Numbered from the stretch's first letter, positions 23,848 through 51,406 are shown. The stretch is DNA of 64,000 nucleotides from Spirochaetota bacterium (GCA_026418195.1 JAOABU010000116.1:2977-66976), one strand, 5' to 3'. The notes: generated by a model not told the origin, from the sequence alone. Program-made: numbers and translations.

Positions 23848-25488
23848 TCATCCTCCTTCGCTGGAGAGTTGCCGTAATCGGGGCGGGGGGGTCAAGAGAC
23901 GCTTCCGGATCCAGTAGTAGGATAGGGAGGCGATTCCATAGTAGAGAAGTCCCAGGGTAATGAGCCAGATCAAGGCTACGAACATCATCTCTATATCGAA
24001 GTTGGCTTTTGCCCGGTTCACTAGAGCTCCCAAACCTTCATGGCCGGAAACGAACTCTCCTACTACCGCTCCGATCACCGATAGAGTGATGGAAATCTTT
24101 ACTCCGCTGAAGATCCCCGGTAGCGCAGCGGGAAACTCCATCCCGAATAAACTCTGGAGTTTACCGGGTTTGTAGAAACGGATCAAACACTGAACCCGTT
24201 CCTCCGAATGTCGAAACGCGGCAATGATGTTGATCAGAAGAGGAAAGAAGATCACGATCACCGAAGTGACGATCCTAGGCAGGATCCCGAACCCGAACCA
24301 AAGCACCAGGAACGGTGCAAGGGCTACCGATGGGATCGTGTTGGCTCCGATAAAGTAGGGCATTAGCAAGCGGGAAAGGAACTTGAACTTGGCGATGCCA
24401 AACCCTACGATCATGCTCAATGCAAAGGCGATCCAAAAACCTAGTAGGGATTCGGTCACCGTGAGTTCCAGGTCGTGGAGGATGGTACCATTCAGAAGAG
24501 TCTCCACAAACTTTTTTAAAATCGACCTGGGGGCAGGGAAGATTAGATCTGGGATCGCTAGAGCATGCTTCAAGAAATCGATTAGGAAAAAGAGAAGCAA
24601 CACTTCAAAAGGAAGGAGAAGGGTGCTCCAGTGGGTTTTTATGTACCGGAGGATCTGTTTTCCCGTAAAAAGGAGGGTACTCCCCGAGATATTACCGGTA
24701 TGCGATGGTGTAGCTGGTTCGGAAGCAGGTCGTTCTATCTCTGTTTCCCAAAGGAATTGCACTTCTCGTCGAATGGAACTGTTCACTTCCTGTTGTGCCT
24801 CCGTAAGAACAAAGAGGCCATTAAGGGATTTCCCTTCACCTATCAGGTTTTTTTCGATCGTTTTGATATCAAGGATCCGTCCCGGCAGAGGGGAAAGGAC
24901 GTAGATCCGGTCGGATAGGAAACAGGCTTCTTCCACAGAGTGGGTAACGAGAATCACCGTGGTCTTTCGGGTGGAATGCAATCGTTTCACGAGAAGGTTC
25001 AATCGTTCCCTAGTGATAATATCGAGGGAAGAGAAGGGTTCATCCAGTATCAAAAGATCTGGTTCAGTGATGAGGGCCCGGGCAATCTCGACTCGTTTCT
25101 TCATACCGCCGGATAGTTGGTGAGGGAAATAGTACTCGTATCCTTTGAGGCCGACGGAATCAAGGACTTCTATTGCCCGGAAGGTGAGGGATTCAGAAAG
25201 GGGGACCTGCTTCAGTTGAAAGGGAAGAAGGACGTTATCCAGCACATTCTTCCATTCTAGGAGAGTATCGTGCTGGAACACGAGGGAGATCCGTTCCGCA
25301 TCGATGGACAGCTCTCCTTTCCAGCCTTTCTGAAGGCCTGAAAGGATATTCAATAGGGTAGTTTTTCCGCAGCCTGAAGGTCCAATGAAACTAACGAACT
25401 CCCCCCTTTCGATAGCGAAGGTCAATTGGGAAAGGATTTCCGTTTCACTAAAGGAAAAGGATAAGTTTCTGGCCAAGACTACGGGCAT
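23848..25488 (-). CDS. ABC transporter, fused ATP-binding (N-terminal) and permease (C-terminal) protein of the nitrate/sulfonate/taurine type
   Basis: Walker A GPSGCGKTT, ABC signature LSGGMKKRVEIARAL, Walker B LILDEP, then about 6 TM helices with a BPD-transp-1-like EAA region. Start trimmed to the ATG at 25488 (MPVVLARNLSF). Confidence 0.75.
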   Translation of the reverse strand: MPVVLARNLSFSFSETEILSQLTFAIERGEFVSFIGPSGCGKTTLLNILSGLQKGWKGELSIDAERISLVFQHDTLLEWKNVLDNVLLPFQLKQVPLSESLTFRAIEVLDSVGLKGYEYYFPHQLSGGMKKRVEIARALITEPDLLILDEPFSSLDIITRERLNLLVKRLHSTRKTTVILVTHSVEEACFLSDRIYVLSPLPGRILDIKTIEKNLIGEGKSLNGLFVLTEAQQEVNSSIRREVQFLWETEIERPASEPATPSHTGNISGSTLLFTGKQILRYIKTHWSTLLLPFEVLLLFFLIDFLKHALAIPDLIFPAPRSILKKFVETLLNGTILHDLELTVTESLLGFWIAFALSMIVGFGIAKFKFLSRLLMPYFIGANTIPSVALAPFLVLWFGFGILPRIVTSVIVIFFPLLINIIAAFRHSEERVQCLIRFYKPGKLQSLFGMEFPAALPGIFSGVKISITLSVIGAVVGEFVSGHEGLGALVNRAKANFDIEMMFVALIWLITLGLLYYGIASLSYYWIRKRLLTPPPRLRQLSSEGG

Positions 25489-25603
25489 CCCTCTGCAATA
25501 TAGTGCTAGAGCGGGCTCTGTCAAGGGTGATGCCCAGAGAAAGTAACGCTGGGGTTGTAAAAAGCGGTCAGAATACGGTACAAGTATCCCCATAGGGGGG
25601 ACT

Positions 25604-29787: not shown

Positions 29788-29831
29788 GGAATTGACAGGA
29801 GATAGGAAAATGGATAGTGTATGGGAAGTGT

Positions 29832-29905
29832 GGGCGACTAGCTCAGTTGGATAGAGTACAAGCCTCCGGAGCTTGGGGTCGTGGGTTCGAATCCCGCGTC
29901 GCCCA
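29832..29905 (+). tRNA. tRNA-Arg (anticodon CCG)
   Basis: Manual fold: acceptor GGGCGAC/GTCGCCC; D-arm GCTC-AGTTGGATA-GAGT; anticodon stem CAAGC/GCTTG with loop CTCCGGA (anticodon CCG); T-arm GTGGG-TTCGAAT-CCCGC; discriminator A. No encoded CCA. Confidence 0.85.
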
Positions 29906-29908
29906 TCC

Positions 29909-38362: not shown

Positions 38363-38432
38363 ACTAAGGTGAATTTCGGCGGAAAAAGAATCGGATTTGA
38401 CAGTGAAAAGAAAAGCACGTATAGTTTCCCCT

Positions 38433-40175
38433 ATGATGGAGTTGAAAGGGATTCCTGCCTCTCCTGGTATTGTAACCGGAAAGGCGTTTCTATATCTGGA
38501 CGACAATCCCCCTATTCCCAAGTACGATATATCTCCTTCTATCATCCCGTTGGAACTAGAACGATTTGAGGAGGCTCAACGCAAGGCTATACGGGAGCTT
38601 GAGATATTAAAACAGCGAACCAATAGCGAAATGTCGGAAGAGACTGTTGGAGTTCTAGACTCCCACCTCATGCTACTCCAAGATCCAGAGGTGAGGGAAA
38701 GGATCGTAGAAGAACTTTACGCACAAAAGAAGAACATCGAATGGGTTATCCACATGACGATCCAATCCTATCTAGAGAAGCTGAACCATACATCAGACCC
38801 CTACCTTCGTGAACGAACCGCAGATATTAACGATGTAACTCGTCGTGTACTGAATCATCTCCTTCATCGGGAGCGGATCTCTCTCTCGGATATTGGGGAA
38901 GAGGTGATCTTAGTAGGGAAGGACCTCTTGCCTTCTGAAGCGATTGCCATGAACAAGCGGATGATCTTAGGAATTGCCTTAGATGAGGGAGGTAAAACTT
39001 CCCATACGGCCATCCTTGCTCGAGCCTTCGAGATTCCCGCTGTGCTAGGGTTGAGGGAGATCACCAAGCATGTTCATACCGGGGACGAAATCCTAATTGA
39101 TGGCAATCGTGGAATAGTAATTCTGAAACCCGATGAGGCCACGAAAACATACTATATGAAAACCCTCGAGGCTAGAACAAAAAAGGAAGTTGAACTCCTT
39201 AGCCTCAATGAACTTCCTGCAGAGACCAAGGACGGAAAACTCATTTGCCTTATGGGAAATATCGAAGTACCTGAAGAAGTAGAGGCTTTGAAGGGACATG
39301 GCGCTGAGGGAGTAGGGTTGTACCGTTCTGAGTTCCTATTCCTAAATCCTGGGAGGCTCCCCAGTGAGCAAATGCAGTACGAAGCTTACCGTAGGGTATT
39401 GGAAGCGATGGAGGGAAAAACCGTCACTATCCGTACCCTTGACCTAGGGGGGGACAAGATCATTCCAGATCTGGTAGATGCAAACGAAAAAAACCCTCTT
39501 CTGGGTTGGCGCGCTATTCGGTTCTGTCTATCCAGGGTGAACATTTTTCGGACTCAGTTGCGAGCTTTATTCCGAGCTTCCGTCCATGGAAAACTTCAGA
39601 TCATGTTTCCCATGATCTCGGGAATCGAGGAATTGAACCAAACCCTAGAACTAGTAGAGCAAGTGAAGCAAGACCTGCGTTCAGAGGGAGTCCCGTTCAA
39701 TGAAAAAGTAGCTATCGGGTGTATGATCGAGATTCCCTCTGCAGCGTTGACCTCAGACGTCTTGGCTCGGAAGGTAGAGTTCTTCTCCATAGGAACAAAC
39801 GACCTCATTCAGTACACTATCGCGGTAGACCGTGGGAATCAACGGACTGCATACCTATATGAACCCTTCCACCCTGCCGTGCTCCGACTGATTCGTATGA
39901 CGGTGGAAAATGCCCATGCCGTTGGGATTCCAGTGGCTATGTGTGGAGAGATGGCTGGCGATCCATTAGCTACCGTGATCCTTCTGGGGTTAGGGCTCGA
40001 TGAGCTGAGTATGAACGCTTTTTCCATTCCAGCGGTCAAAAAGATCATTCGGTCGGTTTCCATGGCAGAGGCAGAGGAGTTGGTAGGGACGGTGATGGAG
40101 ATGCGTTCAGGAAAGGAGATCGATACGTATGTCCGACAGCTCATGGAGAAGCGATTTGACCTCAATACCTATTGA
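38433..40175 (+). CDS. ptsI: phosphoenolpyruvate-protein phosphotransferase (PTS Enzyme I)
   Basis: MMELKGIPASPGIVTGKA N-terminus, phospho-His region GGKTSHTAILARAFEIPAV, and a PEP-utilising C-terminal domain. Start trimmed to 38433. Confidence 0.85.
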   Translation: MMELKGIPASPGIVTGKAFLYLDDNPPIPKYDISPSIIPLELERFEEAQRKAIRELEILKQRTNSEMSEETVGVLDSHLMLLQDPEVRERIVEELYAQKKNIEWVIHMTIQSYLEKLNHTSDPYLRERTADINDVTRRVLNHLLHRERISLSDIGEEVILVGKDLLPSEAIAMNKRMILGIALDEGGKTSHTAILARAFEIPAVLGLREITKHVHTGDEILIDGNRGIVILKPDEATKTYYMKTLEARTKKEVELLSLNELPAETKDGKLICLMGNIEVPEEVEALKGHGAEGVGLYRSEFLFLNPGRLPSEQMQYEAYRRVLEAMEGKTVTIRTLDLGGDKIIPDLVDANEKNPLLGWRAIRFCLSRVNIFRTQLRALFRASVHGKLQIMFPMISGIEELNQTLELVEQVKQDLRSEGVPFNEKVAIGCMIEIPSAALTSDVLARKVEFFSIGTNDLIQYTIAVDRGNQRTAYLYEPFHPAVLRLIRMTVENAHAVGIPVAMCGEMAGDPLATVILLGLGLDELSMNAFSIPAVKKIIRSVSMAEAEELVGTVMEMRSGKEIDTYVRQLMEKRFDLNTY

Positions 40176-41532
40176 ACCGAAACCATCGCAGAAAGTTCCG
40201 TTAGTCGCTATCGTAGGAAGACCGAACGTAGGGAAATCTACCCTCTTCAACCGATTGATCGGGAAACGGAAGGCTATCACCCATTCGATGGCTGGAGTTA
40301 CCCGAGATCCTGTCAAGACTCGTTGGCAATATCGGGACCGAGAAGTCTTTCTGGTAGACACGGGAGGGATCCGGACTGAAGAGGTGTTACCCCTCGATCA
40401 GTTGGTGATTCGCAAGAGTTTTCAGGTGATCAGAGAGGCTGACTGTATCATCCTTCTCGTTTCCATTGAAGGAATCACTGGCGAAGATGAGGAACTGCTG
40501 GAAGACTTACGGCCATTTTCCCATAAGGTGCTATTGGTAGTAAACAAAGTTGATACGGAGGAACGGGAAACACAGTTAGGAGAGTTCTTCGGACTTGGCT
40601 TCGGAGATCCAATCCCTATCTCTGCAGCCCATGGAAGAAACTGTGAGGAACTATCGGAGCGGGTGTTTTCCTTTCTTGATAGGGAAGGGACCTTTCAGGA
40701 GCAGAAGGAAGTCAGGGAAACAGAGGGAGTAGAGGTTCTAACCCTGGCAGTATTAGGGAAACCCAATACAGGGAAGTCTACTCTGGTGAATCGACTGTTA
40801 GGAAAGGAAGTATCGATTGTTTCGGATATACCGGGTACCACACGGGACATAGTGGAGGAGTGTTTCCTATTCGAAGGGAAAAAGATTCGCATCTTTGATA
40901 CAGCGGGGATCCGAAGAAAAACAAAGGTTAGGGAAGATGTGGAGTACTACTCGGTCCATCGAGCACTGGAGGGCATCCGGGATGCAGACGTGATCCTTCT
41001 TCTGATCGATGCAGCAGAGGGGTTAACCGAGCAGGACAAGAAAATCGCAGCTCAAGTGGTCAAGAAGGGAAGGGGAATTATTCTGGCAGTGAATAAATGG
41101 GACATCATCAAGGGGGGGAAACGCGCAGTTCGAGAAGTGGAGGATAGGATTCGGTTCCAATTCCCGGTATTAGATTTCGCTCCCATCCTACCTATTTCCG
41201 CAAAAACAGGTTTCAATTTGGAAACCCTAATGAAAACTGCCTTCTCCCTAAAAAAACAACTCCAAACGAGGATTAAGACTTCTACATTGAACCGTGCGCT
41301 GGAACGATGGGTGGAAAGGAACCCTCCTCCTCAGGTGGGAAAGAAGAGGTATAAGGTTCGGTTCATCACCCAGGTTCGAGCTTCACCTGTGCGGTTTGTC
41401 CTGTTTGTGAACCGGATTGAAGGGTTCCCTAGTTTCTATGTGGGGTATATTCGAAATAGATTGAGGGAGGAGTTCCAACTTTCTCTGATCCCCATTGACA
41501 TTGAATTGAAATCTCGAGGTTCAACCTCATGA
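40129..41532 (+). CDS. der: ribosome-associated GTPase Der (EngA), tandem GTPase domains + KH-like domain
   Basis: 467 aa. Two G-domains (GRPNVGKSTLFNRL...DTGG; GKPNTGKSTLVNRL...DTAG..NKWD). RBS AAGGAG lies 9 nt upstream. The start overlaps the ptsI 3' end by 47 nt. Confidence 0.9.
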   Translation: MSDSSWRSDLTSIPIEPKPSQKVPLVAIVGRPNVGKSTLFNRLIGKRKAITHSMAGVTRDPVKTRWQYRDREVFLVDTGGIRTEEVLPLDQLVIRKSFQVIREADCIILLVSIEGITGEDEELLEDLRPFSHKVLLVVNKVDTEERETQLGEFFGLGFGDPIPISAAHGRNCEELSERVFSFLDREGTFQEQKEVRETEGVEVLTLAVLGKPNTGKSTLVNRLLGKEVSIVSDIPGTTRDIVEECFLFEGKKIRIFDTAGIRRKTKVREDVEYYSVHRALEGIRDADVILLLIDAAEGLTEQDKKIAAQVVKKGRGIILAVNKWDIIKGGKRAVREVEDRIRFQFPVLDFAPILPISAKTGFNLETLMKTAFSLKKQLQTRIKTSTLNRALERWVERNPPPQVGKKRYKVRFITQVRASPVRFVLFVNRIEGFPSFYVGYIRNRLREEFQLSLIPIDIELKSRGSTS

Positions 41533-42812
41533 AACGAAAAAGTCTAGGGGAAGTGTGTCGACTCCTGGATCTTAGACCCCATGTAATTCGGTATTGGGAG
41601 CAGATGATTCCTCTGTTCGAACCCGAGAAGAATTTGTCTGGTCGTCGCACCTATGGTGAACGAGAAATCCACCTCCTCTATCGATTGAAGTATCTCGTTC
41701 AAGAGCGAAAGTTCACCTTGGAAGGGGCACTACAAGCTCTAGTGGAAGAGAGTGAAGATCAATTTGCCAATACCAAGGCGAATATACAATCTCTTCGACG
41801 GGTTCTGTTAGAAATCCGGGAGTCTCTGGAAACTGTTGAAACTCTTTGGGAAAAATCAAGAACCAGGATCGAACTTCCTGGGCAGGAGCATGTTGAAAGA
41901 ATCCTCCTTCGGGTATCCCCCCAAAAGCAGAGGCTAATTTTCCAAGGGCTACGGGACATCTCCAAAGAGTCTATCACCTTGGCCCAAGCCTTATTGGACC
42001 GAGTAAGACCCGTACAACCGTTAAAGGCTACGATTCTGAGTCTAACGGAACCTACCAGGGAAGAGGAGGAAATCCCCGAACCCTTCGAGATATTATTCAC
42101 CCAGGGAGCAATAGGAGTTCTCACCTTTCTTCCCAATTCGGAGAAGCCTTTATCGTTCCGTTGGTTTCAACCCCTAGCTGAACGGATCCGTAATGTGGCA
42201 TACCTGTATGGTCGAATGGTTCCTTGGTGGATTTTCGGTGAATCTCAAAGAATTGACTGGGTAAAAAAAATCTTCCAACAGGAAGGTTTCTTTGGAATGG
42301 ATCCAAGGGCGATCCTATTCGTAAAAGAACCTGTGTTCCCTTACTTGAGAGAGGGGAAATTGGTAATTTTAGGTGAAGGAGAAATTGGACGATACTCTTC
42401 TGGAGTGGGCGGCAGCCTATTGATGTTAAAATCCCGTTCCTTTCAGCGCTTCATACAGCAAACGGGTATTCGTTGGTTCTATGTGCTCCCTTTAAACAGA
42501 TTCGCCTTGAGATTTCCCAATGCAGATTTATTGAAAACCGCAGTTGGTATGAAACTCCCTATACTAGGAACCGTTCTATCAAACGAAGGAGGGTTCCTTA
42601 CCTCAGGAATCTACCTGATAGAAGAAACGTTCCTCCGAAATTGCGATGTACCGTTTTCTGTGGAGGAAGTTCGAATGAGGATCATCAATCCTAAAGGAAC
42701 ATCGGTCGATGATCTAGAGGAAGGGGTGGTACGCCGGCTTTCTTCAGGTTTGTATCGGTTATTCGAGCAGATTCCCAACCCCGTACTGGTCCAGGAGAAG
42801 GTACATTGGTAA
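41529..42812 (+). CDS. MerR-type HTH fused to a roughly 350-aa C-terminal domain of unknown function
   Basis: 427 aa. The N-terminal LGEVCRLLDLRPHVIRYWEQ...GRRTYGEREIHLLYRLKYL matches the MerR HTH pattern. The start overlaps the der stop (ATGA). Confidence 0.55.
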   Translation: MKRKSLGEVCRLLDLRPHVIRYWEQMIPLFEPEKNLSGRRTYGEREIHLLYRLKYLVQERKFTLEGALQALVEESEDQFANTKANIQSLRRVLLEIRESLETVETLWEKSRTRIELPGQEHVERILLRVSPQKQRLIFQGLRDISKESITLAQALLDRVRPVQPLKATILSLTEPTREEEEIPEPFEILFTQGAIGVLTFLPNSEKPLSFRWFQPLAERIRNVAYLYGRMVPWWIFGESQRIDWVKKIFQQEGFFGMDPRAILFVKEPVFPYLREGKLVILGEGEIGRYSSGVGGSLLMLKSRSFQRFIQQTGIRWFYVLPLNRFALRFPNADLLKTAVGMKLPILGTVLSNEGGFLTSGIYLIEETFLRNCDVPFSVEEVRMRIINPKGTSVDDLEEGVVRRLSSGLYRLFEQIPNPVLVQEKVHW

Positions 42813-44113
42813 GCGAGTGTATGCGATTCTTCGTTTTACTGTCATGGTTCTTAGGGGTATTACGAGTCCCTATTTTTCCACAACCCTGGGGAGGGGTTGG
42901 AACCTTTCAATCAGAGATTATCGAAGTATGGGAAAAGGAGAATGTGGAAGCGAGACTCGCTTTTCGTCAGCTATTCACTGCGACGTTAGAAGAACTGGAT
43001 CGCTTTCGAGAACGGGTTGTCCTTCAACGAACTGGGGGGAGTAGAGTGAAAGTCAGTACGGAACGATCCAACGGGGCAGTCTACATCCTATTTCGAAACG
43101 AAAGTGCAGGGGATTTCCCTGTCTACTCTGCGGGATCTTGGATTTTGAAAAGGGATGGAAAAACAGGCGCTCTGATACAGGTGAAGATCTTCTATCGGAC
43201 CGAACCACGCTGCTACCTTCGCCTGTTTCCCTCTGGGGGGAAAACCCTCATGGACGTGTATTTGTTCGATTCCTTATTATATAAGTCGGTTCCCATAGGA
43301 ACAAATCTTTCCCTCCTTTTAACGGAACCTTTCCAACAGATCCTGGATCGGACCAGGAGCACAGTAGACTGGTCCATTCTGCTGCGCACCATGGACTCAA
43401 GCTTCTATTCTTCTGTATTGACTATGGTTCAAAAAATCCGGAAAGAACTTCCCAAACTTCCCGATGCAGAGGATGGGGCAATGGATAGGAGCGGGAAGCT
43501 GGTGTTCATTGCAAACCTCCGAGCACAGGAACGTTTACCGGGTTTCAATTGTTCAGGCTTCGCCAAATGGGTGGCAGATGGTCTGTATAGACCCCGAACG
43601 GGACAGTATCTTGATATCCAACTACTGAAGGAAAAACACTTTTTCCGTAGAGGATCTAGAATTACGAACCGGTTCGAAGAAGAGCGGGATCCTTTCTTCG
43701 GATTAGATTGGACCCGGAATATTGCTCGAGCTCTCGCAGGAGGGGGAGATCCAGAGAAGCAGGATGTTAGGTATGTTCCATTCTGGAAATATCGGGAAGA
43801 TGTGGGGTATCCGATACAGGATATCGAGGGTATCCTATTTTCCTTAGCAATCTTAGAACCTGGCAATTTCTATCTTGGTTCCATCAACCGGGAGTATGGT
43901 ACGAATCCAGTTTTGCGACAACACGTGCATGTGGTAGTCTTGTTCCCGTATTTTACCTCCAACGGAGAGTTCCATGTGGCCGTGTTCGAACGGAATGTGG
44001 AAACAGACCTTTCTTTCCTTAGGAGGAAGTTCGATGGAACCTTCATTCACTTGGTACGGATCAAGGCAGATTCTTCGTTCGAACCTCCTAGGATTGAATA
44101 CATGATTGAATAA
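42806..44113 (+). CDS. secreted protein with an NlpC/P60-like cysteine peptidase motif
   Basis: 435 aa. N-terminal hydrophobic signal. GFNCSGFAKWVADGLY resembles the NlpC/P60 catalytic Cys motif. A downstream His-containing segment (EFHVAVFE) sits in a plausible position. The ATG at 42821 is an alternative start. Confidence 0.45.
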   Translation: MVSECMRFFVLLSWFLGVLRVPIFPQPWGGVGTFQSEIIEVWEKENVEARLAFRQLFTATLEELDRFRERVVLQRTGGSRVKVSTERSNGAVYILFRNESAGDFPVYSAGSWILKRDGKTGALIQVKIFYRTEPRCYLRLFPSGGKTLMDVYLFDSLLYKSVPIGTNLSLLLTEPFQQILDRTRSTVDWSILLRTMDSSFYSSVLTMVQKIRKELPKLPDAEDGAMDRSGKLVFIANLRAQERLPGFNCSGFAKWVADGLYRPRTGQYLDIQLLKEKHFFRRGSRITNRFEEERDPFFGLDWTRNIARALAGGGDPEKQDVRYVPFWKYREDVGYPIQDIEGILFSLAILEPGNFYLGSINREYGTNPVLRQHVHVVVLFPYFTSNGEFHVAVFERNVETDLSFLRRKFDGTFIHLVRIKADSSFEPPRIEYMIE

Positions 44114-44142: not shown

Positions 44143-47004
44143 ATGGGGAAGAAAGTAGCCCTTTCGATTTTCCTTCTGTTTTTTTCGGTACTTTCAGTCT
44201 TCACCCAAAGCTCCTATGAACGGGGAGAACGTCTATATATGGAGGGCAACTACCCTCTCGCATTGGATGCTTTCGATGCCTTCTTACGTTCTTCCCCTGA
44301 CTCACCGTTTGTCGCGGATGCTCAGTTTCGCCGAGCACAGATACTGTTTCATCTAAAAAGGTACAAGGAAGCGGACGAATTGTTTCAACGGATTGAAGTT
44401 CGATACTCCTCTACCCAGTACTATGCGCATCTACCCTTTTGGTCTGGGATGGCTGCGTATGGATTGAAAGATTATGGAAGAGCCGAGCAGCTTCTCTCGA
44501 AATACCTCCGTGGAAATCCTTCGAGTGAAGCTAGGAAACGAGCCCTTCTATACCGTTCTTTGGCTCAGAAGGAACTAGGTCGGTTATCCGAAGCGAAGGA
44601 AGGGTTACAACAGCTATTTACTCCAGAATACTTACAAACTCCAGATCCGGAAGCTCTGGTGCTGTATGGGGCCATTGCTCTATCGTTGGGCGATCTGGAG
44701 GGTCTTGTATCCTTCTACCGCCAAGTTTCGATCGAAAAGCTTCCTGAACCCGCGCGAAGTAGGTTTTTGCTTTTTGTAGGGGAAGCCTGTTACCAACGTT
44801 CCCTTTATAGGGAAGCGGTGGAGGTGTTTGCCTCTGTATCACCCACGCTGGAAAAGGAGAAGGTCTACGCCTTGAAGAGAGCCATTCAGTGTTTCGCATC
44901 TCTTCGGGAACCGCAGTACATTCTTACGGTGCTGGAGGAAGGACGACGATCGTTGAAAAACAGTCCTGCTTCCCTTGCCGAAGTTTGGGAGTTTGGGGGA
45001 AGGCACCTTTTTCGAGCCCGGGAGTATGAGAATACCATCCGTTATCTGGAGATTCTCAAGGAAAGCGGAATAGGGTTAAGTTCCTATGGGTTGGGAATCC
45101 TGGCGGACAGCTACCGTCGTACAGGGAACCTTTCTAAAGCATATTCGGTTTTACTAGGTGTTCCTTCCGCTGAGGATCTTCTTCTCCTCCAAGGGCAGAT
45201 CGAAGCCCAGATGGGTAACTGGGCGGAAGCGGAAAAGACTCTTAGAAGTTGGTTTCTTTCGTATCCCAATAGTTCGTTACAGTTTCCTGCTCTGTTTCTT
45301 TTAGTTTGGGTAGTGGAAAAACAGGGGAGAATCGAGGATGCATTGAACATTACCTATAACTTTTCCCAAACCAGTATACTTCCAGAAGAAGCGTTAGTAC
45401 TTCTTCGTTATCGAGCAGTTCTTTTAGGAAAGTTAGGTCGAGACGCAGAAGCCTTGAGCGTCTGGGAAACCTACCTGAAACATCGAGAAGAAGATGTAGA
45501 AGGGAGAATAGAACGCCTGAGACTCCTTCTCTCAGCTAGTAGAAAAGCCTCTGTAATCCTAAAAGAAGTAGAGACCCTTATACAGAAAGGCCTTCCTCCG
45601 CACCTATTAGAGGCAGTCCGATTATTGAAGGGGGTTGCCCTTCTGGAAGAACGAAGCTTTACAGAAGCTAAGTTAATTCTAGAACAGGTAGCATTCTCGA
45701 AAGGGCAGAGTTCTTCCAGAAACGATCTCCGTCTCTACGCTACCTTTTATCTGGGTTGGGCTTACTATCAATTGGGTAACTATACAGCTTCCCTGGATGT
45801 GTATAGATCCCTCTTAAAAGAATTGGACTTGAACTCCGAACTGCGAGAGAGATCTGTGTACTACGGAGCATGGAGTGCATATACCTTGAAACAATTCGAC
45901 CTTGCCTATTCATTGCTGAACTCGTTTCTCATCAGGAAGGAAAGTCCTTTATGGGCGCGAGCTTGGTTCTTACGGGCAAAAACTCTCTATATGCTGGGGA
46001 AAAAACGAGATGCTCAGGAAGCTTTTCAAACTGTGTTTACAGAAAAACCTGTAGACCCGTTAGCGGATGATGCTCTATATGAGTATGCCAAGATTTTCGA
46101 GGAGTTCGATCAACCAGATCAGGCCTCCGAGGCGTACCTTACTCTTTTTCAACGGTACCCTTCTAGCCCGTTTAAGGATCAATCCTTGTACAGACGAGGA
46201 GAAACGTTCTATGCATCAAAACGGTACAGAGAGGCAAAGGTAGCCTTTTCTCAGTATCGGTCGATGCTACCTAGGGGAGTCTCGATGGACCGCACTCTCT
46301 ATTGGGAAGGAATGGCGTCTTATAGAGTAGGGGAACCGTATGCTGCTGTTCTTCTGTGGGAACGACTCATTTGGGAATATCCCAGAAGTACCCTTCGTTC
46401 GGAGGCTCTCATCCAGGTATCTACTGTCTTGTCTGAATTAGGAGAATATTCTGGATCCCTTCGGTACCTCAAACAGTTGGCGCAAGAATATCCAGAAGAG
46501 GGTAGATCGGATACAATCCAACGACGGATCCGAGAACTGGAGCTTTTACAAACAGGAGCAACAGATCGGGAAGCATCCCTCAAAGTTCAATTGGAGGAAT
46601 CCAACGGAGTAACCACGGAGAGGGGTAGAAGAATAGCCATAGAGTTAGTGAAGTTGTACTTATACGAGATGGGTGGAAAGAGGGCAGAAGAGGAAGCGGA
46701 ACGATGGTTGAAAGAGATCCTTGCACAAGGAGAACAGAAAGAATTGTCTGAGGTTAAATTCTTGATGGGAGACCTCTCTCGATTACGGGGAAATCTACTA
46801 GAAGCTGCTACCTACTATGGGGAAGCAGCCTCTTCCCCAACTGCCGATACAGATCTTGTCACGAGGGCCCTCTACCAAGCAGTGAAGGTATTGGCATTAG
46901 CGGGGAGACAGGAGGAGGCACGAAAGTACTTCGAGGTACTGCAAAAAAGATTTCCAGAATCGCCCTGGACTCTTGAGGGCGGAAAGGTACTAGGGCTTCC
47001 ATGA
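44143..47004 (+). CDS. large TPR-repeat protein with signal peptide
   Basis: 953 aa. N-terminal signal peptide and many 34-residue TPR-like repeats (A/Y/L/W periodicity, e.g. ...YYQLGNYTASLDVYRSLL...). Confidence 0.75.
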   Translation: MGKKVALSIFLLFFSVLSVFTQSSYERGERLYMEGNYPLALDAFDAFLRSSPDSPFVADAQFRRAQILFHLKRYKEADELFQRIEVRYSSTQYYAHLPFWSGMAAYGLKDYGRAEQLLSKYLRGNPSSEARKRALLYRSLAQKELGRLSEAKEGLQQLFTPEYLQTPDPEALVLYGAIALSLGDLEGLVSFYRQVSIEKLPEPARSRFLLFVGEACYQRSLYREAVEVFASVSPTLEKEKVYALKRAIQCFASLREPQYILTVLEEGRRSLKNSPASLAEVWEFGGRHLFRAREYENTIRYLEILKESGIGLSSYGLGILADSYRRTGNLSKAYSVLLGVPSAEDLLLLQGQIEAQMGNWAEAEKTLRSWFLSYPNSSLQFPALFLLVWVVEKQGRIEDALNITYNFSQTSILPEEALVLLRYRAVLLGKLGRDAEALSVWETYLKHREEDVEGRIERLRLLLSASRKASVILKEVETLIQKGLPPHLLEAVRLLKGVALLEERSFTEAKLILEQVAFSKGQSSSRNDLRLYATFYLGWAYYQLGNYTASLDVYRSLLKELDLNSELRERSVYYGAWSAYTLKQFDLAYSLLNSFLIRKESPLWARAWFLRAKTLYMLGKKRDAQEAFQTVFTEKPVDPLADDALYEYAKIFEEFDQPDQASEAYLTLFQRYPSSPFKDQSLYRRGETFYASKRYREAKVAFSQYRSMLPRGVSMDRTLYWEGMASYRVGEPYAAVLLWERLIWEYPRSTLRSEALIQVSTVLSELGEYSGSLRYLKQLAQEYPEEGRSDTIQRRIRELELLQTGATDREASLKVQLEESNGVTTERGRRIAIELVKLYLYEMGGKRAEEEAERWLKEILAQGEQKELSEVKFLMGDLSRLRGNLLEAATYYGEAASSPTADTDLVTRALYQAVKVLALAGRQEEARKYFEVLQKRFPESPWTLEGGKVLGLP

Positions 47005-48608
47005 AAACTCTCACCTCGATTTTAAGAATTGTTGCCCTTCTTTTCCTTTTCGGAAATCCTTCGGCCCTAGTCGCTCAAATGGAACAACCTCCTGAGACGC
47101 CAGAATCTCCCGAAGTTCTTCTGCCCACGATGGTGTTGGAAGCGGAAGCTCGTGAGGACCTGTTCTTTGTTCCACTTCCTCTTTTTGCGGAGCCACGAAT
47201 GGAACTGCCTTCGCCTTTAAAAGAGATCGAGGCACCCCTTGTCTTTCCTCCAGATTTCCTTTCCGTTTCGATTTCACCTACCGAACCTATCTCGACATCC
47301 AAAGAGAAGACATCCCTATACACGGAAGGAACTTTAGGGGTAGGCACGATGGCTAGTTTAGAGGGAGCGCTTTCCCTCTTCCAACGTGGAGAAGATAGTA
47401 AACTGAATCTTAAATTCTCCCATCGATCCAGGGACGGATATCAGTTCCACAAACCCGGTAATGGGTATTTTGATCGACAGGCACAAATCATGGGAGAAGG
47501 AGGGTGGAGCCTTTCCAGAGCGACAGAGATGGGGATGGTCGGAAGCATCGAAGAGAGGGAAATAGGATTACAGGGGGTTTCGGTCTCGTACTCGAATCTA
47601 TACCGTTTCGTGCATGGGAAGGGCTCCCTTACACATCGTTTTACCGATACCGTTCACCTTTCTACAGAGCTAGGGATAGATTACGCCAACCGTCTATTGA
47701 CAGGAACGGTTCCCAAGGATCGATCGGAAACCTTAACCAAGACTATCCTTCGCTTGGTTTATGGGAAAGAAAAAGGGGCCCTTACATTGGAGGGTTCTGT
47801 CAGGGGAGGTACGTATTCGGAGCTTTCTGAACGAGGGTTTTGGGGAGGAGGAACAACCCTGAACGGAGAGTGGACTCCTATACCCCAAGTATCCATTGCG
47901 GGAGGGATAGGAATCTTCTGGCTGGATCAGTTGGAAGTTCCTTTTCATGTAGACTTACGGGTGAAACCTCAGGAAGAACTCCTGTTTACGGTTCAAAGTA
48001 CATACATGGTGGATACAGTATCCTATGGAATCCTATGGAAAGAAGTCGGTCCTGTTGCTCAGTTCCATTCTCTCATCCATCCCAAAACATTTACCTTAGG
48101 ATTCCGAGGAGAAATGAAAGGGTTAAGAGATCGAACGTTGATAGCTATGCAAGGAGAATGGCAAAGGCGGTTCAATGGTTTGCAACTCCTTCCGTATGAT
48201 ACAGGAAATGAGCATTTCCCGTTAAATACAGGTTCTCTTTCCACATATAAGGTACAGGTAGAAGGATCCTATAACCTTTCCCCCGGGATTCTGGGATCTA
48301 TCAAATGGATCTGGCTCCTAAGAGACCGAGCGCTTCTAGAGAAAGAACATACCCTAGAGGGGAGTCTCCGGATCGCTCCGGAAAAACGACCTTTTGGGGG
48401 ATCTATTTCTGGGGTATGGGTCACAAGCGAGGGAACCGCTCTTCCTAATTTAACCATCGGAGGGTATTATAGACCGAGGGAGAATGTGGAAATTTCCCTG
48501 AAGCTTGAGGATGTTCTATACCCCTTTAGTTCGAATAGTCGATTCTTTATCGATCCCTTCATTACCCCTGGATTTAGGATTCTGTTAAACACAACGATTA
48601 CGTTCTAA
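47001..48608 (+). CDS. putative outer-membrane beta-barrel protein
   Basis: 535 aa. Signal peptide, alternating hydrophobic/polar beta-strand pattern rich in G/S/T/Y, and a C-terminal ...NTTITF aromatic terminus typical of outer-membrane barrels. The start overlaps the TPR gene stop (ATGA). Confidence 0.5.
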   Translation: MKTLTSILRIVALLFLFGNPSALVAQMEQPPETPESPEVLLPTMVLEAEAREDLFFVPLPLFAEPRMELPSPLKEIEAPLVFPPDFLSVSISPTEPISTSKEKTSLYTEGTLGVGTMASLEGALSLFQRGEDSKLNLKFSHRSRDGYQFHKPGNGYFDRQAQIMGEGGWSLSRATEMGMVGSIEEREIGLQGVSVSYSNLYRFVHGKGSLTHRFTDTVHLSTELGIDYANRLLTGTVPKDRSETLTKTILRLVYGKEKGALTLEGSVRGGTYSELSERGFWGGGTTLNGEWTPIPQVSIAGGIGIFWLDQLEVPFHVDLRVKPQEELLFTVQSTYMVDTVSYGILWKEVGPVAQFHSLIHPKTFTLGFRGEMKGLRDRTLIAMQGEWQRRFNGLQLLPYDTGNEHFPLNTGSLSTYKVQVEGSYNLSPGILGSIKWIWLLRDRALLEKEHTLEGSLRIAPEKRPFGGSISGVWVTSEGTALPNLTIGGYYRPRENVEISLKLEDVLYPFSSNSRFFIDPFITPGFRILLNTTITF

Positions 48609-48614
48609 GGAGAA

Positions 48615-49244
48615 GTGCGCATGGTAGAATTGATTCAGAAAGGTGGAATAATTCTGGTACTGATTATAGGGCTTGCCTTTATAGCTACTGTGATCATCAT
48701 TGAACGCCTTATATACTTTCGCAGGATACGGATAGACGAGGAGAAAATACTGTTTCGTCTAAAAGCGACCTTAGAAAAAGGACACTATGATGAGGCGATC
48801 AGTATTTGTGAAGGGAATCCTTCCCCTATAACCAATCTGATGAAGGTGGGATTGGAGTACAAGGATCATTCGGAAGAACGAATAAAGGATGCCATCGTCA
48901 GTGCAGCCAATATGGAGATCCCACGGTTAGAGAGATACCTTTCTGCCCTAGGAACCATCGCCAACATTGCTACCTTGTTGGGACCGCTTGGAACAGTAAC
49001 AGGGAATATTCATTCGTTTGGGGTTCTAGGTACCATGGGGGCTGTAGGCGACCCTAGCCTGCTAGCTAAAGGGATAGCAGAAGCCCTTCTTACAACTGCA
49101 GCTGGGTTGATCGTTTCCATCCCTACCATCGTATTCTATAATTATCTGGTAAACAGGGTGAATCACATGATCATTCGATTGGAAAACCGGGTCACTGAAC
49201 TGGTATTGATTTTGGTAAAGACCAAAGGGAAGGACCCTTCCTAG
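48615..49244 (+). CDS. MotA/TolQ/ExbB-family proton channel
   Basis: 209 aa. Three TM helices with the conserved ...LGTIANIATLLGPLGTVTG... segment of the ExbB/TolQ family. Confidence 0.8.
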   Translation: MRMVELIQKGGIILVLIIGLAFIATVIIIERLIYFRRIRIDEEKILFRLKATLEKGHYDEAISICEGNPSPITNLMKVGLEYKDHSEERIKDAIVSAANMEIPRLERYLSALGTIANIATLLGPLGTVTGNIHSFGVLGTMGAVGDPSLLAKGIAEALLTTAAGLIVSIPTIVFYNYLVNRVNHMIIRLENRVTELVLILVKTKGKDPS

Positions 49245-49253
49245 GAGGTACCG

Positions 49254-49685
49254 ATGGAGTTTGGGAGACGCCTTAAACCCGCCGTTCATCTAGATCTAAT
49301 CCCCATGATCGATGTAGTGTTTCAGTTAGTCCTATTCTTTCTGGTTAGTACCACCTTTATCATCACCCCGGGGATCAATCTGAACCTCCCCCGATCGCAA
49401 ACATCCGAACCTGTACTGGTATCGAAAATGGTGATTACTGTCCTGTCCGAAGAGGAAATCTACCTTAACAAGGTGAGATACACACTGCGGACCTTGGAGC
49501 CTCCATTAGCAGCCATGACGAGGGAACAGAAAGAGCAGGTATCCTCAGTGTTGATCGAGGGGGACGAACGGGTTTCATACCGGACCCTCATTGGGGTCCT
49601 GGATATATTACGGAAGCAGGGATTCCGGGGAATCGGATTGAAAACAATGGATCTACGGTTGTTGGATAAGAAGGGTTCCCCATGA
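49254..49685 (+). CDS. ExbD/TolR-family protein
   Basis: 143 aa. Single N-terminal TM (LIPMIDVVFQLVLFFLV with the conserved Asp) plus a periplasmic domain. Confidence 0.75.
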   Translation: MEFGRRLKPAVHLDLIPMIDVVFQLVLFFLVSTTFIITPGINLNLPRSQTSEPVLVSKMVITVLSEEEIYLNKVRYTLRTLEPPLAAMTREQKEQVSSVLIEGDERVSYRTLIGVLDILRKQGFRGIGLKTMDLRLLDKKGSP

Positions 49686-50725
49686 CTCTACTTGATCGAG
49701 ATAAGGAAAGACTTTTCTTTAGTGTGTTCCTATCCTGCCTCCTCTTCATTCTCTTGTATTTCTTTCTTGACCTCTTCATCAAACTGCCCTTGACTCCATT
49801 TCCTGAAACAACCACCCTCCTTTTGTTAGACCTTCAAACCGATCAATTTTTAGGTGAGACTGAAAGGAAAGAAACAGTTACTCCTCTCTCTCCCCCTATC
49901 AAAGAGGTGCTTCCTCCTACCCCTGAACCCCAAACCACACCCCAAAGAGCTCCTTCTGTCCCCTCCTCTCCCATGTCAAAAAATCAGCCTCCTCAACCTG
50001 TTCCCCGGGGATCAACGGGGGATCAAACGGTCGAGCCACGGGTCGAACGGTCTCCGTATCCATTACGCTCAGAACCTATTCCCCCAACTCCTCCTAGAAT
50101 TCAACCCTATACCCCATCAGAGACACGGGATCCTGCGATAGCTGAGAGAGAGTTCCTCCAAGCAGAGATGGCCCGATTAGAGACATGGTTACGAGAACAT
50201 GCTCCCCAACCGTCTCCTTCCTCTGTCCTGCCTGTGCCGAAGGTAGAACAAACTCCTTCCACCCCCGTTGACTCTTCGGTGCAGAAAGTTACCGAGCAAT
50301 TGGAAGTCATCAAACGTCGTCTAGAACAACTTCAGGCTGCTTCGAGTACTCCTCAGAAAACCCAACAAGAAGGGAAAGAACCTTTTTCTCAGGAACCCCT
50401 TAAACCGATCTACGATCGGGAAGGGAGAGAAATTGGGAGGGGAGAACTGAAAGGGAGGGTACCGATGTTTCCTCTAAATATGGGAAGGATCCTACCCGAG
50501 GATTTCGAAGGCTTTCCCATACAGAACCTGGAACTTAGAGCTGAGTTTCTTATTGGGGAATCGGGGCTCTTAGAACCGGGAAGCTTGAAAATTTTTGGAG
50601 ATAGCAGATATACTAGGATCGTCGAGAAGGTCCGGTCGGCTCTAGAGAAATGGAGGTTCGATTCAAGGCCGGGTATGAGGACTCCAGCGGTCATTCATTT
50701 CTTGATCAAGGTTAGAGGGATGTGA
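49682..50725 (+). CDS. TonB/TolA-like energy transducer (N-terminal TM, Pro-rich spacer, C-terminal domain)
   Basis: 347 aa. TM anchor, long Pro/Thr/Glu-rich region, and a C-terminal roughly 90-aa domain of TonB-C-like size and character. The start overlaps the exbD stop (ATGA). Confidence 0.5.
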   Translation: MTLLDRDKERLFFSVFLSCLLFILLYFFLDLFIKLPLTPFPETTTLLLLDLQTDQFLGETERKETVTPLSPPIKEVLPPTPEPQTTPQRAPSVPSSPMSKNQPPQPVPRGSTGDQTVEPRVERSPYPLRSEPIPPTPPRIQPYTPSETRDPAIAEREFLQAEMARLETWLREHAPQPSPSSVLPVPKVEQTPSTPVDSSVQKVTEQLEVIKRRLEQLQAASSTPQKTQQEGKEPFSQEPLKPIYDREGREIGRGELKGRVPMFPLNMGRILPEDFEGFPIQNLELRAEFLIGESGLLEPGSLKIFGDSRYTRIVEKVRSALEKWRFDSRPGMRTPAVIHFLIKVRGM

Positions 50726-50740: not shown

Positions 50741-51406
50741 ATGAAACTAAAACTTGTAGCCTTCGATGTAGATGGTACCCTTTACCCCAATGGGATCATG
50801 TACCTGCGATCCTTACCGTTCGGAATCGCCCATTTCAGAAAACTCCTTGCCTTTGCTCGGGTTCGAAAAAGAATACGTACCATCAAACCGGTTCATGATT
50901 TCTATCGGTTGCAGGCGGAGTTGTTTGCCAGTTATATGGATCTCTCTGTCTCTGAAGCTAAGGAACAGATTCAACGGGTGTTTTACTCTCAATGGGAAGA
51001 AGTGGTCCTAGATATCAAACCGTACCCTTATCTTCTGGATGTACTCCTTCATCTAAAATCAAAAGGGTACAAATTGGCAATCCTATCCGATTTTCCCATC
51101 GGGAACAAACTCAAATATCTAGGTTTGGATTCGATTTGGGATGCTGCGTATTCTTGTGAAGAAATCGGATATTTAAAGCCCAATCCAGAACCCTTCAAGC
51201 TGTTAGCTGCTCATTTTGAAGTTCAACCTCATGAAGTGCTTTATGTGGGAAACAATTATCGGTACGATATTGAAGGAGCAAAGCGGGTAGGATTCCATAC
51301 TGCATATCTTCATCGCTTGCCAACATGGTGTCCTGCGGCCGATTTTAGGTTTTCTGATTATAGACAACTTTTGAAATGGGTGGAATCAATACAGGAAAAG
51401 GAATAG
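50741..51406 (+). CDS. HAD-superfamily hydrolase
   Basis: 221 aa. Motif I VAFDVDGTLY at the N-terminus, and a later SDFP / GNNYRYDIEGA (motif III/IV-like) segment. Confidence 0.7.
   Translation: MKLKLVAFDVDGTLYPNGIMYLRSLPFGIAHFRKLLAFARVRKRIRTIKPVHDFYRLQAELFASYMDLSVSEAKEQIQRVFYSQWEEVVLDIKPYPYLLDVLLHLKSKGYKLAILSDFPIGNKLKYLGLDSIWDAAYSCEEIGYLKPNPEPFKLLAAHFEVQPHEVLYVGNNYRYDIEGAKRVGFHTAYLHRLPTWCPAADFRFSDYRQLLKWVESIQEKE

Follow-up and report, generated by a model that had tools for sequence, protein, structure and literature searches.

The window, a 64,000-nt stretch of Spirochaetota DNA, contains five tightly packed genes on the + strand between positions 44143 and 50725. All five ORFs described in the first-pass annotation were recovered. 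ATGA stop/start overlaps join them at 47001 and 49682, and the two other junctions have gaps of 6 and 9 nt. Shine-Dalgarno-like sequences lie upstream of both the ExbB and the ExbD starts. The genes and the features within them are as follows.

44143–47004, + strand: TPR protein gene; 953 aa, exported, with CpoB/YbgF-type (TPR_6) three-repeat units; proposed periplasmic scaffold.
47001–48608, + strand: outer-membrane protein gene; 535 aa, with a signal peptide, an acidic Pro-rich tail and a predicted 22-stranded, plug-less barrel of TBDT fold.
47079–47312, + strand: N-terminal tail of the barrel protein (residues 27–104); periplasmic, Pro-rich, acidic, of low pLDDT and strongly conserved.
47100–47180, + strand: candidate docking 'box' (tail residues 34–60), proposed from column conservation; putative partner, the TonB-like domain and/or the TPR protein.
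48615–49244, + strand: ExbB/TolQ-like proton-channel subunit gene; 209 aa, GTG start, PF01618.
49254–49685, + strand: ExbD/TolR-like subunit gene; 143 aa, TM aspartate (IPMIDVV), PF02472.
49682–50725, + strand: TonB-family transducer gene; 347 aa, with a TM anchor, a Pro-rich linker containing two short helical segments and a divergent TonB_C-like end.
50387–50722, + strand: TonB_C-like C-terminal domain of the transducer (residues ~236–347), assigned from hhalign and orthologs.

The domain calls made at first reading for the TPR protein and the two channel subunits were borne out by Pfam. TPR families cover residues 25–944 of the TPR protein, and the ExbB/TolQ-like and ExbD/TolR-like proteins matched PF01618 (MotA_ExbB; 107.5 bits) and PF02472 (85 bits), respectively, above the gathering scores. 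The TM2 motif LLG[LP]LGTVxG occurs in all 85 ExbB/TolQ-like orthologs, and the TM aspartate motif that is kept in the window copy (IPMIDVV) in 82 of 83 ExbD/TolR-like orthologs. According to the NCBIfam models, the ExbB/TolQ-like protein scored best as TolQ (91, cutoff 221) and lower as ExbB (53–54, cutoffs 135–206), while the ExbD/TolR-like protein scored 65.7 as TolR (cutoff 127) and 48.9 as ExbD (cutoff 216). Judged by these equivalog scores, all of which fall below cutoff, the motor pair is a member of the superfamily and of neither named subfamily.

The transducer has an N-terminal TM anchor and a Pro-rich spacer, and the window copy had no match in Pfam. When its C-terminal-domain profile was compared by hhalign with the E. 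coli TonB CTD, the two aligned over a ββαβ core with a probability of 75% and an E value of 2.5e-5. Relatives of the window copy matched TonB_C/TonB_2 below threshold. Seven of the eight tested positional orthologs encoded after ExbD passed the TonB_C (PF03544) gathering score (25–44 bits against 24.6); membership in the TonB family, as first proposed for the Pro-rich protein, therefore holds for the orthologous group, of which the window copy is a divergent member. Every locus encodes a TM-anchored protein of 250–400 aa at this position. A TM histidine is present in about 58 of 68 orthologs, at a spacing unlike the SxxxH (SHLS-type) motif of TonB, and the window lineage has Phe22 in its place.

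The TPR protein matched the NCBIfam model tol_pal_ybgF (TIGR02795) at 187.9 bits in four stretches, the best at residues 680–795; the cutoff is 90.1, and this short TPR-domain model can be passed by multi-TPR proteins. The full-length CpoB model NF008068 yielded 58.7 against a cutoff of 383, and the BamD and PorW/SprE models in NCBIfam gave sub-threshold hits as well. The only PDB sequence matches at E≤0.001 were CpoB (6g5s, 8e-6) and YbgF (2xev, 3e-5). The architecture differs from that of CpoB, in which about 260 aa comprise an N-terminal coiled coil and a single TPR domain: CpoB-like internal units lie at about residues 60–159, 607–681 and 680–795, and a CpoB-type N-terminal coiled-coil domain was not identified in the protein. 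Consistent with the earlier view that the protein is secreted rather than cytoplasmic, 63 of 64 TPR proteins (the window copy and its orthologs) had a signal-peptide-like hydrophobic N-terminus according to a crude hydrophobicity criterion. No lipobox cysteine was conserved across the orthologs.

The 535-aa protein was predicted to be a 22-stranded outer-membrane β-barrel of TBDT fold, in agreement with the initial barrel assignment, and its translation ends in ITF, as had been noted. It is too small to hold a plug. The ∼78 residues ahead of the barrel are non-globular and of low pLDDT, the tail ranging from 41 to 51. At E≤0.01, Plug (PF07715) matched neither the window protein nor any of 86 family members, and the TBDT barrel model PF00593 matched none of the 86. 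The barrel, whose aligned family members are 516–581 aa long, has no matching model in Pfam or NCBIfam; the closest sequence trace to a TonB-linked receptor was a marginal profile match to 8bmx_C in the PDB (E 0.0011).

Across the family, the tail has a median length of 79 aa, a net charge of −16 and a proline content of 15%. Despite its low pLDDT, its conservation equals that of the most conserved barrel glycines: in the 86-member alignment, columns P34 (3.7 bits), L41 (3.2), P42 (4.1), L46 (3.3), L59 (3.3), P60 (4.05) and P72 (3.6) stand out. A TonB-box pattern of the PROSITE PS00430 type matched one of the 86 family members. Where a TonB box would be expected, the tail carries a conserved, family-specific amphipathic motif that differs from this pattern. 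A docking 'box' that binds the TonB-like domain and/or the TPR protein may lie at residues 34–60.

Across ∼80 species-level Spirochaetales genomes, a Treponema MAG and one 3.4-Mb contig, the genes keep the order TPR-barrel-ExbB-ExbD-TonB. Because this order occurs in two or more genomic contexts, the conserved unit is the set of five genes. Conservation of the cluster, like the barrel prediction and the export of the TPR protein, had been named beforehand as a point on which the first-pass annotation could fail, and it held on all three. Every named relative belongs to Spirochaetota, in line with the suggested lineage specificity; free-living spirochetes and some Treponema share the block. The sole exception to the order among loci with enough contig is L080, in which an ExbB-ExbD-TonB-like trio lacks the TPR and barrel genes upstream. 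In ∼18 loci with unrelated flanks, only the five genes are in common. As the order recurs everywhere but L080, these contexts included, the adjacency is far beyond chance. It persists though the barrel, TPR and TonB-like proteins diverge to about 28–30% identity; across 42 loci, median identity is 68% for ExbB and 28% for the barrel.

The module is surrounded by core housekeeping genes (der, ptsI, grpE-dnaK-dnaJ, a topoisomerase gene and that of RNase Y), and its position among them is fixed in the loci sampled. HAD and coiled-coil genes are frequent neighbours, yet lie outside the conserved unit; the usual downstream neighbour, which encodes a giant spirochete-specific coiled-coil protein (SpiroCoCo), is missing from the alternative-context loci. 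TolB and Pal were absent among the window ORFs scanned against Pfam (the genes from 41.5 to 55 kb and 30 larger ORFs elsewhere), and neither is a consistent neighbour in the ∼80 loci. No peptidoglycan-binding domain was found in the window's five-gene module. In one sub-lineage (L032, L080 and L017; 3 of ∼80 loci), the gene right after the TonB-like one encodes a secreted protein of 1,700 aa whose C-terminus is an OmpA peptidoglycan-binding domain.

In diderm bacteria, Ton and Tol are the two textbook routes by which inner-membrane energy reaches the outer membrane. What defines each of them is the partner in the outer membrane: plugged TBDTs in Ton and TolB-Pal in Tol. Spirochete envelopes are unusual in that they have periplasmic flagella and a loosely attached outer membrane. 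As observed at first reading, the gene order in the window is neither tolQRA-tolB-pal-cpoB nor exbBD-tonB beside a canonical receptor. We found no description of this Ton/Tol module variant in the literature, and the main text of a 2025 survey of how TolA/TonB evolved makes no mention of spirochetes.

Taken with the structure prediction, the sequence data suggest that the five genes may encode one envelope-spanning, PMF-driven machine of Ton/Tol type, specific to spirochetes and with a housekeeping role like that of Tol-Pal, a reading whose chances we put slightly short of even. That the products form one machine is supported by the overlapping stop/start codons that link the genes and by the order kept across contexts. 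The conserved motor motifs, the TonB_C matches of the positional orthologs and the strong conservation of the barrel tail speak for the same reading. A housekeeping Tol-like role is the most likely function and is favoured over gated transport; the function, which we infer, is the least certain step.

In the proposed mechanism, proton flow through the ExbB/TolQ-ExbD/TolR-like stator would energise the TonB-like arm. The C-terminal domain of the arm would capture a β-strand-forming motif in the barrel tail by strand augmentation. Such augmentation occurs between TonB and the TonB box and between TolA and the N-terminus of TolB. The TPR solenoid would bind the remaining extended tail and/or the arm, scaffolding the link across the periplasm. 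By linking the outer membrane with the inner membrane and cell wall, the machine would serve envelope integrity or division and not the uptake of a specific nutrient. A precedent exists in the Glt model, in which the tails of the GltA/B barrels bind the TPR protein GltC in a TolQR-like machine (PMC11761067). The failure of the tail to fit the canonical TonB-box pattern counts against this reading.

Several observations favour the Tol-like role. The TPR protein passed the tol_pal_ybgF cutoff, and CpoB and YbgF are its only PDB matches. The TolQ and TolR models outscore those of ExbB and ExbD, a relative preference only, as all scores are well below cutoff. Moreover, the barrel has neither plug nor TonB box, the module lies among core housekeeping genes as Tol-Pal does, the motor is very strongly conserved relative to the barrel, and an OmpA-domain protein follows the TonB-like gene in the three loci named above. 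The mixed Pro-rich/helical linker of the transducer is compatible with non-gammaproteobacterial TolA (PMC12204202). By contrast, the transducer head resembles TonB_C/TonB_2 rather than TolA_C, and the window module has no TolB, Pal or peptidoglycan-binding domain, which argues against the role. The module also differs from Tol-Pal in that its outer-membrane partner is an integral 22-strand barrel and that its TPR protein, about 3.6 times the length of E. coli CpoB (263 aa), comes first in the gene order instead of last.

The Ton system (ExbB-ExbD-TonB with TBDTs such as BtuB, FhuA and FyuA) shares with the module a MotA/ExbB channel, the TM aspartate of ExbD, a Pro-rich, TM-anchored transducer of TonB_C type and a 22-stranded outer-membrane partner of TBDT fold, whose gene here adjoins the motor genes. 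The module could be read as a TonB-dependent importer whose gate is unconventional: the barrel would be closed by its own tail, by a conserved loop that folds inward or by the TPR protein, and the arm would open it for a large or scarce substrate. We consider this unlikely. In contrast to Ton receptors, the barrel has no PF07715 plug or PF00593 match, 85 of the 86 family members lack the PROSITE TonB box, and in their place stands a conserved tail of about 79 residues that is acidic and Pro-rich. The obligatory CpoB-type TPR partner of ∼950 aa has no counterpart in classical Ton uptake, and the window lineage has lost the TM histidine that TonB carries. The fixed housekeeping location in every sampled locus is unlike the variable, substrate-regulated loci of TBDTs. 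There is also no hint of a substrate: no binding protein or ABC importer was consistently adjacent in the loci compared.

The 22-stranded barrel is far bigger than an anchor requires, which favours a channel function over the Tol-like role. It could be a new kind of energised outer-membrane channel, a plug-less pore of TBDT fold that its own tail and the TPR protein would gate in trans and that the TonB-like arm would open. Such a channel would serve a core envelope task for which no machine is known in the phylum, for example the passage of lipoproteins or other macromolecules through the outer membrane, or constriction of that membrane in place of TolB-Pal. We regard this as improbable.

An equally low probability attaches to a PMF-assisted conduit for export or surface assembly, in which the TPR protein would pass cargo from the periplasm, be it polysaccharide, protein or lipoprotein, to the wide barrel. 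The model for such a conduit is found in the synthase-dependent exopolysaccharide systems that combine TPR protein and barrel (AlgK/AlgE, PgaA, BcsC and PelB) or in Slam, which are among the systems closest to the module. Its energy source may be likened to that of PopC secretion, which depends on the TBDT Oar, or of the PorLM-driven type IX system. Across the loci compared, no genes for glycosyltransferases, synthases, cargo or secretion signals were consistently linked to the module, and the fold match of the barrel to exporter barrels was much weaker than to TBDTs. To our knowledge, TPR-barrel exporters do not use ExbBD-TonB, which also counts against export.

Comparison of parts lists from literature descriptions revealed a striking parallel with the Agl-Glt/Nfs core complex of Myxococcus and relatives (AglRQS, GltC/D/E and GltG, with the barrels GltA/B/H): both have a TolQR-like motor, a TonB-like protein, an exported TPR protein and plug-less barrels, and in the Glt model extended periplasmic segments of the barrels dock on the TPR protein (PMC11761067). 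The Glt core is also present in non-gliding bacteria, where its function is unknown (PMC3169522). The module might accordingly be a spirochete counterpart that moves or positions, for example, cell-surface or periplasmic-flagellum-related structures, and SpiroCoCo as the usual downstream neighbour would fit this. Nevertheless, the idea is very unlikely to hold. In the Glt core there are three TPR proteins and two TolR-like subunits, and GltG carries an FHA domain, as against one TPR protein, one ExbD-like subunit and no FHA domain here; the Glt barrels are small and lie outside the conserved core; and the reported hosts are Proteobacteria and Fibrobacteres, spirochetes not among them (PMC3169522). 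The coiled-coil neighbour, moreover, is missing in alternative-context loci. Finally, that the genes are mere neighbours, the ExbB-ExbD-TonB trio serving receptors elsewhere as its occurrence without the other two genes in L080 might suggest, is barely credible given the overlapping start/stop codons and an order that survives ∼80 genomes, several unrelated contexts and the divergence noted above.

Whichever function applies, the module joins the kind of motor and arm used by Ton and Tol to a third kind of partner, a plug-less barrel of TBDT fold with a giant CpoB-like TPR scaffold. If the module is the Tol equivalent that we favour, it would show how outer-membrane coupling is solved without TolB-Pal and would be relevant to the suggestion that barrel-type outer-membrane proteins gave rise to Tol components (PMC12204202). 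Should the barrel instead act as a channel, it would be the first natural TBDT-type pore without a plug and a candidate for unexplained transport steps. Either way, the locus defines a protein family for which no model exists, with at least 322 clusters at 50% identity, as well as a concrete complex that can be tested.

The five open reading frames that the first-pass annotation had grouped as an envelope module were found at the coordinates proposed for them, all on the forward strand.

Genes of the module (window coordinates)
44143-47004, + strand: TPR protein, 953 aa
47001-48608, + strand: barrel protein, 535 aa
48615-49244, + strand: ExbB-like protein, 209 aa, GTG start
49254-49685, + strand: ExbD-like protein, 143 aa
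49682-50725, + strand: TonB-like protein, 347 aa

The annotated ATGA stop/start overlaps at 47001 and 49682 were present in the sequence, and the remaining spacings, described as no more than 10 nt, measured 6 nt and 9 nt. Shine-Dalgarno-like sequences preceded the ExbB and ExbD starts. Promoter and terminator consensus scans of the window from 38 to 56 kb gave matches at chance level, with nothing convincing within the module; it is from gene packing that we infer a single operon.

The predicted proton-channel pair was recognized. According to Pfam, the 209-aa protein contains PF01618 (MotA_ExbB; 107.5 bits) and the 143-aa protein contains PF02472 (ExbD; 85 bits). In NCBIfam, the TolQ (91 bits) and TolR (65.7 bits) models scored above those for ExbB and ExbD, with the motor proteins far below the equivalog cutoffs of all four. 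The TM2 motif LLG[LP]LGTVxG was retained by the ExbB-like protein in 85/85 orthologs, and the transmembrane aspartate motif IPMIDVV by the ExbD-like protein in 82/83.

TPR families covered the full length of the 953-aa protein in Pfam. In NCBIfam, this protein passed the tol_pal_ybgF TPR-domain model over four stretches (187.9 bits vs a threshold of 90.1) and matched the BamD and PorW/SprE models below threshold. Against all PDB sequences (E ≤ 0.001), it matched only CpoB (6g5s, 8e-6) and YbgF (2xev, 3e-5), both within residues 657–797. A profile of this unit detected additional CpoB-type copies at residues ~60–159 and 607–681, plus weaker ones. Together, the PDB matches and the internal copies indicate that the TPR protein is, as judged from its sequence, a long solenoid of CpoB-type three-TPR units. 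Its annotation as secreted held up: signal-peptide-like N-termini occurred in 63 of 64 TPR-protein orthologs, as well as in 71 of 72 barrel orthologs, and neither set contained a conserved lipobox cysteine.

The 535-aa protein had no Pfam match, and a word-indexed search returned only nine close relatives, the named one being from a spirochete MAG. When 1.84 billion cluster representatives were searched exhaustively with a profile, 322 family members were identified (E ≤ 0.001); among the 150 matches listed, most were 516–588 aa long and matched over their full length. The family has no model in Pfam (2025) or NCBIfam (2026). In 86 diverse members, neither Plug (PF07715) nor the TonB-dependent transporter (TBDT) barrel model (PF00593) matched, and NCBIfam yielded no family beyond stray single matches. 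An AlphaFold2 model computed from a shallow alignment of 8 close homologs (pLDDT 45.6) was discarded and the 86-member alignment was used instead, yielding a model with a pLDDT of 87.2 and a pTM of 0.77 in which residues 100–535 mostly exceeded 90. In this model, a signal peptide and low-confidence residues ~21–100 are followed by 22 long antiparallel strands, in agreement with the annotation of an outer-membrane β-barrel. Because only ~78 non-globular residues precede the first strand, the protein is predicted to be a TBDT-fold barrel without room for a plug. To our knowledge, the only 22-stranded barrels in the PDB are TBDTs; the fold match thus secures size and shape better than descent. 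Of the 86 members, 59 end in Leu and 24 in Phe, 83 in all.

Despite its low AlphaFold2 confidence, the tail that links the signal peptide to the barrel was strongly conserved across the family. A conserved A-Q closes the signal peptide, and residues 34–60 read P-E-E-P-E-[IL]-V-L-P-x-[MV]-[LV]-L-E-[IV]-E-D-L ... L-P. Several columns in this segment match the best barrel glycines in information (P42, 4.07 bits; P60, 4.05; P34, 3.73; vs 4.10 for G113), and additional hydrophobic-x-hydrophobic-Pro motifs extend up to residue 92. In the 86-member set, median tail length is 79 residues; the tail carries a net charge of −16, and 15% of its residues are proline. A PROSITE-style TonB-box pattern matched the tail of only one member of the 86. 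With its conservation, this makes the tail look like a candidate docking peptide that is not a canonical TonB box. The acidic tail showed no charge complementarity to either the TPR or the TonB-like protein; many lineages are acidic throughout.

In the 347-aa protein, annotated as a Pro-rich TonB/TolA-like transducer, an N-terminal TM helix is followed by a Pro-rich stretch and two short helical segments; the C-terminal domain, of ~110 residues, is highly conserved. The window copy had no Pfam match; seven of the eight positional orthologs tested passed the TonB_C gathering score (25–44 bits). Distant members gave repeated sub-threshold matches to TonB_C and TonB_2 in the C-terminal region (best 22.3 bits vs 24.6), and a profile of the C-terminal domain aligned to that of E. 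coli TonB with an hhalign probability of 75% (E 2.5e-5). In every related locus, the gene 3′ of exbD encoded a TM-anchored protein of 250–400 aa. Gene position is decisive in classifying the 347-aa protein as probably TonB-type. The C-terminal profile, used as the query of a homolog search, recovered just 7 fragments, all short, from spirochetes and lacking Pfam annotation. Against the PDB, the full-length profile gave noise only, and the C-terminal-domain profile recovered TonB chains (E 0.15–1.2) among PLP-enzyme false positives, so that this result is not evidence on its own.

Most TonB-like orthologs have a His in the TM helix, which is Phe in the window lineage. More specifically, the window's sub-lineage (loci L001-L003, L007, L009, L010 and L014; TM helix at window 49682-49800) has Phe or Leu in place of His, and its C-terminal domain is the most divergent (PEDFEGFP and GDSRYTR motifs). 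The two changes suggest that coupling of the TonB-like protein to the motor may be altered in this sub-lineage.

Contigs with barrel homologs at 65%, 44% and ~25% identity had the same gene order. A locus scan of one genome per species, with an ExbB alignment as the query, found 119 relatives. The best 80 of the 119 were all from Spirochaetales or Spirochaetaceae and included Ca. Marispirochaeta associata, an Alkalispirochaeta MAG and a complete MAG chromosome. As read by ORF calling and searches with component profiles, all loci of sufficient length except one (L080) contained TPR-barrel-ExbB-ExbD. Identical module order occurred in a Treponema sp. MAG and on a 3.4-Mb contig. The window's flanks were kept in about two thirds of the loci: ptsI-der-merR-like-hyp435 upstream and, as annotated, a HAD hydrolase and a giant coiled-coil gene downstream. 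In ~18 loci with other contexts, gene clustering showed that only the five module genes were common; the block is conserved even where its flanks are unlike the window's. Relative to the window copy, the 42 loci in which none of the five genes was incomplete had median identities of 68% for ExbB, 53% for ExbD, 30% for TPR, and 28% for both the barrel and TonB-like proteins. From these medians, a tightly constrained motor appears to be paired with fast-evolving periplasmic and outer-membrane partners. Overall, the parts list, the export signals and co-inheritance as a block are strongly supported.

In L080, ExbB-ExbD-TonB-like is preceded by a FapA-family gene in place of the TPR and barrel genes. 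Directly after the TonB-like gene comes that of a 1,752-aa secreted protein in which seven stretches matched as FlgD-Ig-like and the C-terminus is an OmpA peptidoglycan-binding domain (PF00691, 48.7 bits). In L032, where the module is complete, a homolog (48% identity over 1,730 residues) is encoded directly 3′ of its five genes; L017 has another after the TonB-like gene.

Genes for the OmpA-domain giant secreted protein (~1,700-1,750 aa)
L080, 3153-8411
L032, 10858-15990
L017, 1923-4796

By the position of this gene in the three loci, a Pal-like wall-binding element is genetically linked to the motor in one sub-lineage. The giant protein also has a distinct ~330-aa N-terminal domain and CHU_C-like segments.

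Genes flanking the module (window coordinates)
41529-42812, + strand: MerR-type HTH protein, ~350-aa C-terminal extension without a family
42806-44113, + strand: 435-aa protein (hyp435), hydrophobic N-terminus, without a Pfam or NCBIfam family
50741-51406, + strand: cytoplasmic HAD-IA-type hydrolase, 221 aa
51423-55061, + strand: SpiroCoCo coiled-coil protein, 1,212 aa, N-terminal TM segment

The 435-aa protein has many invariant residues, such as W255, D258, H375 and H415, and its gene is conserved directly upstream of that for the TPR protein in about two thirds of the loci, including Treponema. It is missing from the alternative-context loci and so is not part of the core module. Its NCSGF motif had raised the possibility of an NlpC/P60 cell-wall hydrolase, which was rejected: no HMM matched at E ≤ 10 and the Treponema ortholog does not conserve the Cys. 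The MerR-type gene overlaps the 435-aa gene start with its stop and the der stop with its start; its extension is very variable among relatives (113–566 aa in total). The ptsI (Enzyme I; 38397-40175, +) and der (EngA GTPase; 40129-41532, +) ORFs overlap by 47 nt. The same overlap was called in relatives (L002: 1422-3164 and 3118-4521), so it seems to be a conserved feature and not an artefact of start-codon choice.

Downstream, the HAD hydrolase gene occurs 3′ of the module in most loci and is absent from the alternative contexts. The E. coli tol-pal operon begins with the gene for YbgC, an unexplained cytoplasmic thioesterase, of which this cytoplasmic neighbour may be reminiscent. The coiled-coil protein matched NCBIfam SpiroCoCo_N (206.7 bits) and SpiroCoCo_C (328.7 bits). 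Its gene is the usual downstream neighbour (1,050–1,800 aa in relatives, including Treponema), likewise absent from the alternative-context loci; we found no paper using the family name.

The remaining window is housekeeping: dxr, cdsA, uppS, tsf, rpsB, maf, 2-oxoacid dehydrogenase genes, topoisomerase subunits, RNase Y, ymdB, ftsJ, ptsI and der, with the HAD hydrolase, SpiroCoCo, grpE-dnaK-dnaJ, spoU, purD and purM 3′ of the module. TolB, Pal/OmpA, Plug and TBDT models matched no window ORF scanned. Rfam identified one tRNA-Arg (CCG; 29831-29908) and nothing else. From ~25.6 to 60.1 kb (25600-60150), every sizeable gene is on the + strand and cumulative GC skew climbs steadily, a pattern that fits a long block of housekeeping genes on the leading strand. 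The window also encodes fusion proteins: two single-chain 2-oxoacid dehydrogenase E1 proteins with alpha and beta joined (7543-9999, −, 818 aa; 25604-27796, +, 730 aa), an MFS transporter with HEAT repeats (14662-16890, +, 742 aa) and an ABC ATPase with a permease domain (23848-25593, −, 581 aa).

If Ton and Tol are taken as models, the ExbB/ExbD-like stator would draw on the proton gradient to drive the TonB-like arm, whose head would bind a strand-forming motif in the conserved barrel tail; the TPR solenoid may bind the extended tail and/or the arm. The module would work as Ton and Tol do, with a motor of the same superfamily. Its barrel differs from TBDTs in lacking a plug, a TonB box and a PF00593 match, and the module differs from Tol-Pal in lacking TolB and Pal. 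We tentatively favour a housekeeping, Tol-like role in envelope coupling because of the CpoB-type partner, the relative preference of motor scores for TolQ/TolR, the barrel without plug or TonB box, the module's constant place among housekeeping genes, a motor that is extremely conserved, and, in one sub-lineage, a neighbour with an OmpA domain. The chief alternative, an unconventionally gated importer, is helped by a 22-stranded barrel that exceeds what an anchor needs and is hindered by the same missing plug and TonB box; we consider it rather unlikely. A TPR-plus-barrel conduit for export or assembly is improbable. A Glt-like dynamic machine is very unlikely. Judged from published descriptions, the Agl-Glt core has the closest parts list to the module, and GltC has been modelled as clamping the periplasmic tails of plug-less GltA/B barrels in a TolQR-type machine (PMC11761067), an exact parallel to the proposed contact of TPR protein and barrel tail; the core has been reported only from Proteobacteria and Fibrobacteres, with its function outside gliders unknown (PMC3169522). 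That five genes kept together in unlike contexts are merely co-located is scarcely credible.

Spirochetes are absent from the main text of a 2025 survey of TolA/TonB evolution (PMC12204202), a paper on the T. pallidum OMP repertoire makes no mention of TonB, and we found no description of the module in the literature on spirochete Tol/Ton modules, plug-less TBDTs and SpiroCoCo. The module is real and conserved and, as far as the literature shows, undescribed. What would be new in it is an outer-membrane partner for force transduction of the Ton/Tol type, the structure of the barrel being predicted. A plug-less barrel of the TBDT fold, and its spirochete setting, would surprise specialists.
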